Shown here in pieces: positions 1,205-5,298 of a DNA stretch of 5,845 nucleotides. Made by a program: the position numbers and the translations under genes. The stretch is from a virus: positions 1 through 5,845 of the IMG/VR virus record IMGVR_UViG_3300045988_004631; one strand, given 5' to 3'. The stretch's first letter is position 1. Every line of letters begins with the position of its first letter. Below the pieces are notes generated by a model, which made no database searches, had not been told where the DNA came from, and saw only the letters and a list, made by a program, of their open reading frames with translations.

Positions 1205-1219
1205 AACGCCGCAGGCGTT
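1205..1219. other. Short GC-rich hairpin (aacgcc-gca-ggcgtt) followed by T5 on the plus strand
   Basis: 1205..1210 pairs perfectly with 1214..1219 around a 3-nt loop. A T-run at 1218..1222 gives it plus-strand terminator-like geometry, although no credible plus-strand gene exists. Confidence 0.4.
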
Positions 1220-1309
1220 TTTAACATTTTCAACATAGTTTTCAACATTTTAACATTGTTAAACTTTAGCATAACAGAGTGTTTTAACAATTCAACAACT
1301 TTTTAACAA
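1219..1309. repeat. Array of at least 7 direct iteron-like repeats TTTT(C)AACA(T/A), plus one inverted copy
   Basis: ttttaacat occurs at 1219..1227 and 1248..1256. ttttcaacat occurs at 1227..1236 and 1239..1248, giving an A-B-B-A arrangement. An inverted copy forms the palindrome ttaaca-t-tgttaa at 1250..1262. A second cluster has ttttaacaa at 1282..1290, ttcaacaa at 1291..1298 and tttttaacaa at 1300..1309. A further ttcaac occurs at 1368..1373. The 11-mer taacaattttt occurs at 1304..1314 and again at 1574..1584. Confidence 0.75.
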
Positions 1310-1321
1310 TTTTTTCCACAA

Positions 1322-1340: not shown

Positions 1341-1418
1341 GCATATCTGCGTTGTAAATTATTGCTTTTCAACTTTTAAACTGTCTCTACTACTTCTCCT
1401 ACAACAAGTATATAAATA

Positions 1419-1486
1419 ACACGCATGTGTGCGCGTGCGCGCGCGTGCGCGTTTCGTGCGCGTGTGCGCATGTGCGTACATGCGTG
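1419..1486. repeat. Alternating purine-pyrimidine (CG/TG/CA)n tract, potentially Z-DNA forming
   Basis: 1419..1452 (34 nt) and 1455..1486 (32 nt) each alternate Pu-Py without exception and are separated only by tt. The heptamer GTGCGCG occurs at 1429, 1435, 1445 and 1456. The tract ends are inverted repeats: cacgcatgt at 1420..1428 and acatgcgtg at 1478..1486. Confidence 0.85.
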
Positions 1487-1639: not shown

Positions 1640-1685
1640 GTCATCAAGCCAAGTACCAGCCTTGTCAGGTACTTGGCTTGATGAC
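1640..1685. other. Perfect 18-bp stem with a 10-nt loop, starting 2 nt after the VP4 stop codon
   Basis: gtcatcaagccaagtacc (1640..1657) is the exact reverse complement of ggtacttggcttgatgac (1668..1685). The loop is agccttgtca (1658..1667). No U-tract follows on the minus strand, so it is not a canonical intrinsic terminator. Confidence 0.85.
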
Positions 1686-2704: not shown

Positions 2705-3606
2705 TATCTTAAATAATCACCCGGCTTTCTCTGCTGTCCATAGCTTCCCGTTTTGTCTGTTGCTTTGATTGCGCGGTCTGTTGATCCTGCAACTCTTTGC
2801 TGTGCTTTGCCTGCATCATAACTCGGTTTTGCAACTTTGTCTGTTACGATGTTTACATTGTCTTTCAGCTGTTGCCAGCTCCTGCCGCTGTTTGCTCCTT
2901 GCTGGAAATAACTGCTTACTCCCTGTGCAAGGTTCACGCTGTCGCTGAAACTGCCGTAACTGTTGGAACTGAATGCTGGACTTCCCAATGCACTGATGCT
3001 TGCCGCGCTTGTGCTTCCCAGTCCTACGCTTGCGCCGCCTACGCTTCCAGCACTGCCGCCGCCCATTGCCGCGCCGCCGTTGAGTGCCGCTAAAATCGGG
3101 TTGATTCCTGCGGCCCTCATGTCTGCAACGGCTCTTTGGTATGCGGTACTGCTCATGTGCTCTTGCCATTCTCGATTGAGTGCGGCTTCTGCGGAGTTGT
3201 AGGCCATGGCTTCGCGCATTAGGTCGGCGTTCATGCGCCCTTGTTTGTTCATCAACATACTGTTGAGCAATCCTTGGTAGCCGCTTCCTGCCATGTTGTA
3301 GATTCCTTGTGCGCTCATGCTTCCCAGATTTCTGAGCCATCCGCTAAGCTCTGTGTTTCGGTTTGTGCTGTCGTTCGTTCCTCCTGAGCTTTCGCTGTGG
3401 CTGTTTCCATAGCTCCAGTTAGAACTACTGCCTCCTCCTGCTGTCCAGCCTTGGTTTTGGCTGTAATTGAACTTGTTGGATGCGTTAAACTGTGCTTGGT
3501 TTTGGTTCAGTCCTTTGAACTGGTTGTACAGGTTTCCGACCGTTCCGGCAATGTTTCCAATTGTTCCTACTGCTTTGATTGCTGTTGGCAACCATTCCAG
3601 TGCCAT
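2704..3606 (-). CDS. VP2-like minor capsid / DNA pilot protein, 300 aa
   Basis: The conserved central block AYNSAEAALNREWQEHMSSTAYQRAVADMRAAGINPILA matches the gokushovirus VP2 signature (..MS.TAYQR...D...AG.NP.LA). It is flanked by low-complexity regions rich in G, S, N and Q. The ATG at 3606..3604 has AGGAGG upstream. It sits directly downstream of VP1. Confidence 0.9.
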   Translation of the reverse strand: MALEWLPTAIKAVGTIGNIAGTVGNLYNQFKGLNQNQAQFNASNKFNYSQNQGWTAGGGSSSNWSYGNSHSESSGGTNDSTNRNTELSGWLRNLGSMSAQGIYNMAGSGYQGLLNSMLMNKQGRMNADLMREAMAYNSAEAALNREWQEHMSSTAYQRAVADMRAAGINPILAALNGGAAMGGGSAGSVGGASVGLGSTSAASISALGSPAFSSNSYGSFSDSVNLAQGVSSYFQQGANSGRSWQQLKDNVNIVTDKVAKPSYDAGKAQQRVAGSTDRAIKATDKTGSYGQQRKPGDYLR

Positions 3607-3618
3607 TTTAACACCTCC

Positions 3619-5298
3619 TTAGTGGTGGTCAATCAGGCCCGGCACGCTGTACATCGGCATAGGACGCACGGTCGTGTTTTTGACAAGGAAATCTGCAATG
3701 AATTGCGGTTCGTTTACCTTGTTTTCAACTGCGAGTGTTCTTGCGATTTCTGCACTTCCTTCTTTCATCCACTCTTGACTGAGTGCCGGCGTATTGGCGT
3801 AGTTGTCACCATAGTGCCAGCTGTCCAGCGTTCCGGTCGCATTGGATCGGAACGCACCACAGATGCGATTGGGCTTCATTCTGTAATCCGCCCACGCCTC
3901 TTGGTAGCCGAACGCCTCGTTGTCGGTGTCTGTACCCTGTGCGTATAGTTCCTTTTTAAGCACTGCCTGTTCTCCCAAATTTGCGAAAACAGGGAAGTAA
4001 TAGTCAAGCTTGTTTTTTCGGCTGAACATGCGTTCTAGACCCTGCTGGTACGTGTGGTCATGGCGTACACAGCATACGCCGATAACAAACCCGTGCTCTT
4101 CAAAGCTCTTCGTAAAAGCGCTTTTGCCAAAGCCTGTAACTGACATTGCCGCTACGTTGCCCTGCGGGCTTGTTTCCGTTGTGCCGCTTGTCTGAATTAC
4201 CTGGTTCATGTTAATCATGATTCGGTCGCCGCCCAGATATTCAGGAATCTGGACAGTTTTATCAGAAATGCGAGTTCTGAACAGACTGTAAATTTGTTCG
4301 CGGTATCGACTGCCGCCGCGTGCCAGTTCTTCAAAGTACTTCTGCACTTGAAATGCCTGTCGCAACTGGTTGATTGTTGCACCGGTTATGGCGCTGAGGT
4401 CTGCGCCAAGGTATGTTGGACTTCCGTTTCTTCCCCAAAGCATTGACAGACCGTCTTTTTCTGCTCCTATTTGTCCAATTTGTACTTCTTCTCCTGCTTC
4501 TGCTCGTCCTACTGTGTAGAATGTCTTTGTTTCTCCTACTACTGGGTTTGTTCTGTCTTTGTCTGTGTATCCCATTATCGGCGCATTGCCCAACATAGGA
4601 ATTGTGACGCTTTCTGCAGAACGCTGAGGCGAGGGCAAAGTACTGCTGAAGTAGTCGTGGAACCGGTTCACCGGCAGAGGTCTCCCGCCTGTGTATGCTT
4701 CCTGCAGGATGGTTTCCAGTGTTGCATCTTTGCCACTGTCCTTATAGGTTACATCTGCGTCTTTGTCCGTGTTGATTGCCGGGTTGTCCACGTTCTGGTC
4801 CCGGAACCACTCGTTCCAAATCTTGACGTATGCGCGGATAGGAAGCGCGTTGATATTCAGTTCACCGGTTTCACCGATGATTTTGGTTGGCACGCCCATA
4901 TAGTCGAGAATGCTATTTTCCAGCGGGAACTTGTTTTCTGCCGTGCCGCCTTTGATTTTCAACTGCGGCACTGTGTATTCGGTCTGCTGCACCCACGGGT
5001 CATCTGTGACTTCTCCCATGAATTCCTTCCAGTGTTCCCACAAAATACGGTCAGGACAGAAGAAGTAATAGTAATCCAGATAACAGTTATCCATTACCGG
5101 GAAGATAGGCGTGCTCATGCGCACCAGTCCAACGTTGTCGATTGAAAATGTGTCACCGGGAAGCACTTCATCGACGTAGAAAGGAATAAGCTGGCCTGCA
5201 TCGAATGTCAGCTTGATATCTTGGTCACGTTTGAAACGGCTTCGCGTGATTTCCAAGTTCGGCACTTGGTTGAAATGTGCTTCGTTGTTTCTTTTCAC
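3619..5298 (-). CDS. VP1 major capsid protein (Microviridae F-like jelly-roll, Gokushovirinae-type length), 559 aa
   Basis: The N-terminal signature is HFNQVPNLEITRSRFKRDQDIKLTFDAGQLIPFYVDEVLPGDTF. C-terminal blocks are WADYRMKPNRICGAF and TVRPMPMYSVPGLIDH. All are typical of gokushovirus VP1. The start is GTG (5298..5296), with AAGGAG 10 nt upstream, and it overlaps the VP3 TGA stop (GTGA). Confidence 0.96.
   Translation of the reverse strand: MKRNNEAHFNQVPNLEITRSRFKRDQDIKLTFDAGQLIPFYVDEVLPGDTFSIDNVGLVRMSTPIFPVMDNCYLDYYYFFCPDRILWEHWKEFMGEVTDDPWVQQTEYTVPQLKIKGGTAENKFPLENSILDYMGVPTKIIGETGELNINALPIRAYVKIWNEWFRDQNVDNPAINTDKDADVTYKDSGKDATLETILQEAYTGGRPLPVNRFHDYFSSTLPSPQRSAESVTIPMLGNAPIMGYTDKDRTNPVVGETKTFYTVGRAEAGEEVQIGQIGAEKDGLSMLWGRNGSPTYLGADLSAITGATINQLRQAFQVQKYFEELARGGSRYREQIYSLFRTRISDKTVQIPEYLGGDRIMINMNQVIQTSGTTETSPQGNVAAMSVTGFGKSAFTKSFEEHGFVIGVCCVRHDHTYQQGLERMFSRKNKLDYYFPVFANLGEQAVLKKELYAQGTDTDNEAFGYQEAWADYRMKPNRICGAFRSNATGTLDSWHYGDNYANTPALSQEWMKEGSAEIARTLAVENKVNEPQFIADFLVKNTTVRPMPMYSVPGLIDHH

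Follow-up and report, generated by a model that had tools for sequence, protein, structure and literature searches.

In rolling-circle plasmids, a single-strand origin lies closely upstream of the double-strand origin. Microviruses rank among the most abundant DNA viruses of gut and aquatic viromes, and their replication signals beyond those of phiX174 are essentially unmapped. According to the available text of one study, a 64-nt hairpin lies between OG91 and Rep in reekeekeeviruses, where its authors proposed it as a possible start site of negative-strand synthesis, and paired hairpins occur in roodoodooviruses (PMC9865509). Here we analyzed a purine-pyrimidine tract at positions 1419 to 1486 of the IMG/VR virus record IMGVR_UViG_3300045988_004631; the whole 5,845-nt stretch is referred to below as the window. 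The tract is a 32-bp hairpin that pairs fully on the + strand of the window only, and our best interpretation is that it represents a DNA hairpin, not described before, of which copies adjoin the replication gene of many microviruses. The first-pass annotation, which had proposed that the tract forms Z-DNA, knew of no comparable element in Microviridae, and our literature searches for this hairpin or for Z-DNA in Microviridae likewise found none; for hairpins and origins of the family they yielded only the reekeekeevirus hairpin, which is the closest published analogue.

The window represents a complete circular gokushovirus genome with a unit of 5768 nt and a terminal redundancy of 77 nt, and all of its recognizable genes lie on the − strand (Table 1). 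The tract is located inside the sole large non-coding region (~1129-1687), which on the coding strand has VP4 upstream and the peptidase gene downstream. The two strictly alternating runs broken by tt stand as originally described, as do the four GTGCGCG copies (starting at 1429, 1435, 1445, and 1456) and the dominance of CG and TG/CA steps, with 27 G and 6 A at purine positions and 19 C and 14 T at pyrimidine positions. In composition the tract is thus of the Z-DNA type, that is, an alternation of at least ~12 bp dominated by CG and TG/CA. The next-longest alternating run of the window has 11 nt. Among 2000 genomes simulated by a first-order Markov model, the longest run was 13 nt on average and at most 23 nt, and under this model runs of at least 32 nt are expected ~8e-7 times by chance. 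The contrast with AT-rich surroundings holds on the 5′ side and not on the 3′ side, with G+C contents of 0.28 (1350-1418), 0.68 (the tract), and 0.64 (1487-1580). The tract was also correctly taken to be non-coding. An 86-aa open reading frame (ORF; 1359-1619, − strand) crosses it, but an alternating sequence cannot hold stop codons in any frame, and this ORF has no Pfam match and is disrupted in relatives by an indel of 100 nt; a coding-sequence reading was therefore rejected.

The same tract was found at the syntenic position in MG945382, MT135259, and MG945388, which are GenBank pig-gut gokushovirus genomes 83-87% identical overall to the window, and in IMG/VR contigs of another data set. 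Its core is unchanged in all four close genomes, even though the flanks of MG945388 cannot be aligned. Since independent assemblies from different studies, among them the three from GenBank, carry the same tract in the same place, the assembly or amplification artefact that had been raised as a concern is ruled out. Between the window and its close relatives we counted 36 transitions and 3 transversions. In MG945388 (L001), the right arm is prolonged at 4465-4481 by a (TG)n-like tail, which alternates beyond the paired stem and may have grown by slippage.

On the + strand, the 32-nt arms (1420-1451 and 1455-1486) pair along their entire length around a TTT loop. The 9-bp terminal inverted repeat noticed before does exist, but it is merely the foot of this hairpin, and the tt that breaks the alternation is explained by the odd-length loop, which shifts the purine-pyrimidine phase between the arms. 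All five A residues in the arms pair with T; the A-T pairs lie at the foot, and G-C pairs and G.T pairs make up the rest of the stem. Read on the − strand, its eight G.T wobbles turn into C.A mismatches. Folded as single-stranded DNA (ssDNA), the + strand has a free energy of -31.9 kcal/mol (z -3.5), and no shuffled sequence was as stable, whereas the − strand has -23.8 kcal/mol (z -1.0), a stability reached by 31 of 200 shuffles. We refer to the G.T-tolerant strand as the GY strand and to the element as the GY hairpin. A cruciform in duplex DNA was rejected. The arms are just 75% complementary in that form, and by a rough estimate extrusion would cost ~60 kcal/mol from 8 + 8 mismatches and would be unfavorable throughout, with a net cost of +7 to +40 kcal/mol at superhelical densities (sigma) of -0.07 to -0.03, before any junction term. 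Given this prohibitive cost of arms that are 25% non-complementary, the hairpin should exist only in the single-stranded + strand.

A scan of IMG/VR with the degenerate pattern GYGYGYGYGYGCGTTTCGYGYGYGYGYG matched 114 contigs; those among the matches listed were 4-8 kb long, and nearly all had VP1 and VP4 related to those of the window. A second scan that left the loop free found additional microviruses with TTA, CTT, TCT, and GTT loops, while the large contigs of non-microviral origin that it matched had simple repeats of the (GT)n type with inconsistent loops. Together, the pattern scans revealed a hairpin of the same kind in considerably more than 100 microvirus genomes, with VP1 identities to the window of 27-88%; by a rough count, these genomes represent a dozen or more clades, which are concordant throughout. 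When genomes were sampled by VP1 and not by the hairpin, 16 of 79 carried it, including nearly all with a VP1 at least 54% identical to that of the window, and the loops there were TTT, CTT, CTA, TTA, CTAT, TCTA, or ATTA. No flanking motif common to all hairpin clades was found. In 596 Gb of bacterial and archaeal genomes, GYGYGYGYGYGCGTTTCGYGYGYGYGYG had only five matches, three of them microviral, which ruled out a host repeat or mobile palindrome such as REP/RAYT or the ends of IS200/IS605. Two hairpin-bearing microvirus sequences lie inside bacterial genomes or are binned with them, one in a 114-kb Bacteroidales contig (L124, UQMB01000008) and the other in a contig of a Butyricicoccaceae metagenome-assembled genome (L121); they represent a probable prophage and a clue to the host.

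Across the family, stems are 12-32 bp long. At positions that the search pattern left free, we counted 405 Watson-Crick pairs, 103 G.T pairs, no A.C pair, and 11 others. The feet of the stems are frequently non-alternating and yet paired, for example ATACAGGC/GCCTGTAT and ATTGCG/CGCAAT. In an alignment of 75 sequences, 83% of cells were paired in the stated register, and the distal pairs covaried, with CG, UA, AU, and GC interchanging; none of 500 shuffles reached the observed covariation score. Sliding the register by 2 nt still left 78% of cells paired, as any even register leaves the GY core self-complementary. This insensitivity, the range of arm lengths, and the occurrence of simple (GT)n/(GTGC)n repeats in large contigs of unrelated viruses would suit a selectively neutral (CG)n/(TG)n microsatellite, made by slippage, palindromic by composition, and decorated by mutational bias. 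We regard such a repeat as very improbable. The hairpin is kept beside Rep down to 27% VP1 identity and persists even in genomes of 4.5 kb, where hardly any DNA is spare; the microvirus loops are always T-rich and closed by GCG/CGC, unlike those of the unrelated repeats; the distal pairs covary; and A.C mismatches are absent although mutation bias alone should yield some, which argues for selection on pairing of the + strand.

All 114 placed copies of the hairpin adjoin VP4. Seventy-three lie 17-260 nt beyond the end of VP4, and their GY strand is antisense to the genes; in 32 others, located ~35-1300 nt upstream of VP4 (most at less than 700 nt), the GY strand is sense; the remaining 9 are upstream as well, but have an antisense GY strand. 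The hairpin of 4.5-kb genomes falls within the last codons of the Rep ORF, as in L016 (...THARARNAHARAKSK*; hairpin at 1226-1257). Such an overlap may be easy, since a strictly alternating sequence has no stop codon in any of the six frames. The overlapping C-terminal codons of L016 and similar genomes encode an Arg/Ala/His-rich tail. In these small genomes another hairpin adjoins the GY hairpin (1268-1305 in L016, and homologues), with a lower stem of 6-9 bp, a bulge of 3-4 nt on one arm, and a GC upper stem of 5-8 bp, and it shows clear covariation between lineages.

The orientation of the hairpin follows the base composition of the strands. Genomes with the GY strand antisense to the genes (n = 83) had a coding-strand AT skew of +0.35 ± 0.035 (range +0.27 to +0.43), and those with the GY strand sense (n = 33) had a skew of -0.19 ± 0.06 (range -0.29 to -0.08), with no overlap between the two ranges. 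A further 25 genomes from the free-loop scan were concordant. Of 217 non-redundant genomes, 146 had the GY hairpin on the T-rich strand and none had it on the A-rich strand; in the hairpin-bearing genomes found, the T-rich strand was antisense to every gene in 127 versus 62. The + strand of the window is the T-rich strand of the genome and antisense to all of its genes. Four-fold degenerate sites on the coding strand of the window VP2 are 56% A, 24% C, 13% G, and 6% T, a mirror image of the cultured phages Chp2 (51% T, 26% A, 14% G, and 9.5% C) and SpV4 (65% T). The T-richness of the coding strand of ssDNA phages has been ascribed to C-to-T deamination on the packaged strand (PMC3278643, PMC4032129). 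Microvirus genomes, here the window and the loci L001-L262, fall into two compositional classes. One has coding-strand AT skews of about -0.29 to +0.2; the other, to which the window belongs, has skews of about +0.26 to +0.43, and in it the GY hairpin and a second conserved hairpin described below are both inverted relative to the genes.

These strand-specific features bear on the original proposal of a Z-DNA former, in which the alternating CG/TG duplex of the supercoiled replicative form (RF) would act as a supercoil sink or a regulatory switch near a promoter or origin. Z-DNA is physically possible in the naked supercoiled RF: the tract offers 66 bp of strict alternation, mostly CG and TG steps, all family members have alternating cores, and the (TG)n tail of MG945388 lengthens the alternation past the paired region. 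A rough estimate for a 5.8-kb circle made the flip favorable at sigma of about -0.04 for one arm and about -0.05 for both arms, and unfavorable at -0.03. The unconstrained superhelicity expected in cells is lower, at about -0.03. Moreover, the pattern of conservation is not that of a duplex, strand-symmetric property, as the ratio of G.T to A.C is 103:0 on one strand and the hairpin is on the T-rich strand at 146:0. Z-DNA leaves both of these ratios unexplained, together with the paired non-alternating feet and the equal arms around an odd loop, and the phase shift at the loop would cost a Z-Z junction. Z-DNA therefore does not explain the conserved features, and we consider it an improbable function of the element.

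An element acting at the RNA level, either an intrinsic terminator of VP4 on the coding strand or a structured antisense RNA from the + strand, is more improbable still. In its favor, the RNA fold of the + strand is very strong (-59.6 kcal/mol, z -6.3, versus -34.2 kcal/mol for the − strand); on the − strand, TATTTATATA comes after the hairpin foot, a weak terminator match with 7 pairs; and the canonical terminator at 1597-1627 is lacking in two relatives. However, the well-paired strand is antisense to all genes in the window clade, a promoter scan revealed no convincing + strand promoter before the hairpin, and the orientation tracks strand composition rather than the direction of transcription. 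The location within the Rep ORF in small genomes also argues against a terminator or antisense RNA. Rfam gave no match above threshold for the tract; the best was mir-297, with 43.6 bits against a threshold of 90, and the hits were TG-repeat look-alikes.

A second hairpin lies ~210 nt 3′ of the tract on the + strand of the window (1640-1685; Table 1). It is conserved, loop included, in the four relatives of the window, and is homologous to hairpins with (C)TACTTGAT loops in relatives and in Chp2, where it reads CTAGCGTATAACAG-TCTACTTGAT-CTGTTATACGCTAG. Many genomes with the GY hairpin have such a second perfect hairpin, with 9-19 bp and an 8-12-nt loop of (C)TACTTGAT or CYTCTTGAT. On the T-rich strand, the loops of the hairpin at 1640-1685 and its homologues read (C)TACTTGAT or CCTTGTCA. 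The loop motif agrees with the annotated viral-strand origin of phiX174, CAACTTG^ATATT (4306), which is on the T-rich coding strand. Origins of HUH-type Rep proteins have their cleavage motif in a loop of at least ~7 nt, a feature of the hairpin at 1640-1685; in the tract, the loop has 3 nt and varies (TTT/TTA/CTT/CTA), and no such motif was found. From its sequence, the hairpin at 1640-1685 is a candidate Rep nick site and rolling-circle replication origin.

The two hairpins are co-oriented. A CTTG[AT]-loop hairpin was on the T-rich strand, as is the GY hairpin, in 105 genomes and exclusively on the A-rich strand in 4. Among genomes with a T-rich coding strand, the loop motif was on the coding strand in 23 of 23 loop hairpins scored, and among those with an A-rich coding strand it was on the non-coding strand in 48 of 52; of the other four, three are terminator-like and unrelated, and the fourth, in L185, is a true exception, one of those described below. 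In 46 of 69 genomes the GY hairpin precedes the CTTG-loop hairpin by 39-322 nt in the 5′ direction of the T-rich strand, while random placement would put ~6% of genomes within 320 nt.

This arrangement would also suit a binding site for Rep (VP4) or a rolling-circle termination element, in which the GYGC units of the stem position Rep near the nick-site hairpin, either at initiation or when a round ends with the closing cleavage and ligation. We rank this as the main rival. It draws on the location beside rep, mostly 40-320 nt 5′ of the nick-like hairpin and on the same strand, on a 4-nt periodicity of the stem (WWgg patterns), and on a strand specificity like that of other hairpin sites of HUH enzymes. 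However, the T/C positions of the stem vary freely while VP4 diverges to 25% identity, with no evident specificity code, and the spacing to the nick-like hairpin is variable, sometimes exceeding 1 kb. The phiX174 A protein is not known to need such a hairpin. On balance, a Rep-binding or termination role appears unlikely.

We favor the reading that the tract is a conserved, strand-specific hairpin of the Microviridae replication module that serves as a single-strand origin, and give it a probability of roughly 0.5. We infer that the hairpin acts on single-stranded DNA of the T-rich strand, where it is probably an entry site, resistant to single-stranded DNA-binding protein (SSB), for host priming of the complementary strand. 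This role is favored because the hairpin is orientation-dependent and lies just upstream of the putative nick site, as in rolling-circle plasmids. An extensive hairpin on one strand only, as expected of a single-strand origin, is present. Its distance 5′ of the putative nick site is ~210 nt in the window, and 1-2 kb in genomes outside the 39-322-nt group. In the proposed mechanism, Rep would nick the loop of the second hairpin and the + strand would be displaced. The GY hairpin would be among the last DNA displaced, would fold, and would remain free of SSB. The folded hairpin could then be the entry site of the host priming machinery, which would start the complementary strand on displaced strands and equally on virion DNA after injection. 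The strict alternation may have arisen from a maximally stacked (CG)n stem worn by C-to-T deamination in ssDNA; such changes would be tolerated because G.T still pairs. The apparent Z-DNA motif would then be accounted for by strongly stacked CG stems worn in this way. Among the roles listed by the first-pass annotation, a fold in the packaged single strand fits best, although it was not anticipated that the folding strand is antisense to the genes.

Several points weigh against this reading. The priming function is inferred from position and architecture alone, most loci were retrieved by the search pattern itself, and the lineages are not independent. Neither an RSB or CS-6 motif of the ssoA type nor promoter-like -35/-10 elements were found in the hairpin (loop TTT; promoter scan), and the 3-nt loop offers a primase little template. 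The two hairpins are ~1-1.9 kb apart in 20 of 69 genomes. The model requires the antisense + strand to be displaced and packaged, contrary to the accepted polarity of the Microviridae. A nick-like hairpin with CTACTTGAT is on the coding strand in four genomes whose skew is weakly positive (+0.07 to +0.20). The cultured phage phiMH2K (L207, AF306496) has an A-rich, G-poor coding strand (skew +0.29; four-fold sites 46% A, 27% T, 21% C, and 6% G) and yet a CTACTTGTTGTA-loop hairpin on the coding strand; its best nick-like hairpin, at 3296-3335, has the loop GGACCCTACTTGTTGTAA. Either phiMH2K is an exception to the orientation rule or it uses a different nick motif. The sequence ACTTGTTGTAG, the complement of 1388-1418, matches the phiMH2K loop and is found on the coding strand of the window clade beside the hairpin, and the nick site could be there instead of in the CTTG-loop hairpin. 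Finally, a nearby cluster resembling DnaA boxes could be the real complementary-strand origin. It should also be noted that phiMH2K and the four genomes of intermediate skew weaken AT skew as a clean predictor of polarity, and we did not retain it as such.

The G.T-tolerant hairpin, the nick-like loop, and the C-to-T signature are all on the T-rich strand, which is antisense in the window clade, and one possible reading is antisense packaging. A large part of the Microviridae, including common gut gokushoviruses, would then nick, displace, and encapsidate the strand complementary to the mRNA; they would be negative-sense ssDNA phages, with a replication module that became inverted relative to the genes as the family evolved. 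We put this forward tentatively, at slightly less than even odds; the phage of the window itself may package the strand opposite to its genes. No description of antisense (negative-sense) packaging in Microviridae was found in literature searches. If this strand inference is true, the label "positive-sense" is wrong for many Microviridae lineages, with consequences for strand-specific virome methods, analyses of mutation bias, and packaging models.

The features of the window are listed in Table 1. Within the AT-rich region, the repeat array proved to include the CAACAAGT element of the 5′ flank. By eye, the + strand of 1388-1418 agrees with the phiX174 origin 20-mer at 17 of 20 positions. Repeats of the TTTTCAACA, TTTTAACA, and TTTTCCACA type also occur at 1366-1381 and resemble DnaA boxes; a perfect TTATCCACA is present in the array of some relatives, and the array has the opposite orientation in MG945388 and the L100 group. 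DnaA-box matches were not enriched above chance genome-wide (16 versus 13 expected) and cluster at 1218-1320. A XerCD/dif-like integration site was also considered and rejected, as the XerD arm is mismatched (by eye, against the E. coli dif sequence).

Table 1 Coordinates of the hairpins, the alternating tract, the flanking elements, and the genes in the window.
Feature	Position	Strand	Remarks
Complete hairpin, 32 pairs	1420..1486	+	19 G-C, 5 A-T, 8 G.T, 0 mismatches
TTT triloop	1452..1454	+	Closed by GCG/CGC; shifts purine-pyrimidine phase
Left purine-pyrimidine run, 34 nt	1419..1452	+	1420-1451 is the 5′ arm of the hairpin
Right purine-pyrimidine run, 32 nt	1455..1486	+	3′ arm of the hairpin
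Invariant core	1431..1470	+	Identical in all four close genomes
Perfect 18-bp hairpin, 10-nt loop (1658-1667)	1640..1685	+	+ strand loop AGCCTTGTCA; just past the VP4 stop
Conserved 5′ flank, (CTA)n-CAACAAGT, then AT-rich; motif (CTA)n-CAACAAGT-ATATAAATAACAC	1388..1418	+	In gokushoviruses with VP1 45-88% identical
Repeat array, TTTTCAACA, TTTTAACA, TTTTCCACA	1218..1320	+ (listed)	Repeats in both orientations; AT-rich part of non-coding region
VP3 scaffold	5786-5295	−	
VP1 capsid	5298-3619	−	
VP2	3606-2704	−	
VP4/Rep	2704-1688	−	Adjoined by the hairpin family in 114 scored copies
M15 peptidase	~1128-726	−	
VP5	293-30	−	

Between the tract and VP4, a GC-rich block at 1490-1590 with a hairpin of TGTTAGGGGGTG/CACCCCCTAACA is an indel, missing from MG945382 and MT135259 and swapped for a different GGGG/CCCC hairpin in MG945388 and IMG/VR relatives. 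It is followed at 1597-1627 by a hairpin that resembles a bidirectional terminator, being flanked by an A-run in front and a T-run behind; its left arm is absent in two close relatives. On the other side of the non-coding region, a near-consensus sigma-70 promoter (TTGACA-17-TACAAT; 1168-1140, − strand) lies upstream of the M15 peptidase ATG at 1128, which is preceded by GAGGGAAG. This promoter-like sequence is embedded in a hairpin at 1151-1205, an inverted repeat with 26-nt arms.

The recurrent Rep-adjacent hairpin is a concrete candidate for a cis-acting replication element in much of the family. Together, the GY and CTTGAT-loop hairpins form a candidate replication module that is testable in existing synthetic-genome systems of gokushoviruses, synthetic circular genomes having already been built for E. 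coli gokushoviruses (PMC7062461). In addition, the hairpin provides a simple sequence marker to orient metagenomic microvirus genomes.

Compared by description only, and within the available text of that study, the reekeekeevirus hairpin resembles the GY family in being long, conserved, and Rep-adjacent in very small microviruses, and in combining an identical loop with compensatory changes; unlike for the GY family, strand asymmetry, alternation, and a link to strand composition are not reported in that text (PMC9865509). Among better-known replication signals, the tract is similar to the plasmid ssoA/ssoU origins, M13 ori(-), G4 oric, and the phiX174 primosome assembly site, which are long imperfect hairpins working in one orientation on the displaced strand. 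Like single-strand origins, the tract is non-coding, and where it lies shortly upstream of the putative nick site, as is usual, it would be exposed last. It differs from ssoA-type and M13-type origins in having no RSB, CS-6, or promoter-like motifs, and from known single-strand origins in that a single hairpin, alternating almost purely between G-C and G.T, carries a T-rich loop of just 3 nt and overlaps the end of the Rep ORF in small genomes. The Rep-binding element of the adeno-associated virus (AAV) inverted terminal repeat, which consists of tetranucleotide repeats, and the nic-adjacent inverted repeats of relaxases are similar in that an HUH enzyme reads a stem of short tandem units near the cleavage site on the cut strand. 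However, the GYGC units are degenerate, their spacing to the nick-like hairpin is variable, and binding by VP4 is hypothetical. Relative to the classical (CG)n/(TG)n Z-DNA inserts in plasmids, the composition and length of the tract are well inside the range that flips under supercoiling, but its halves are out of phase, it is strand-asymmetric, and it covaries as a hairpin. As for phiX174, its origin CAACTTG^ATATTAATAAC shares CTTG[AT] with the loops of the hairpin at 1640-1685 and its homologues, and the 5′ flank of the tract, CAACAAGTATATAAATAACAC, also resembles the origin 20-mer; the phiX174 site, however, is inside gene A on the coding strand with no hairpin loop, whereas the motif of the window is antisense to the genes. 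These comparisons place the element among the hairpin-type replication signals of ssDNA replicons, as a widespread and apparently undescribed member.

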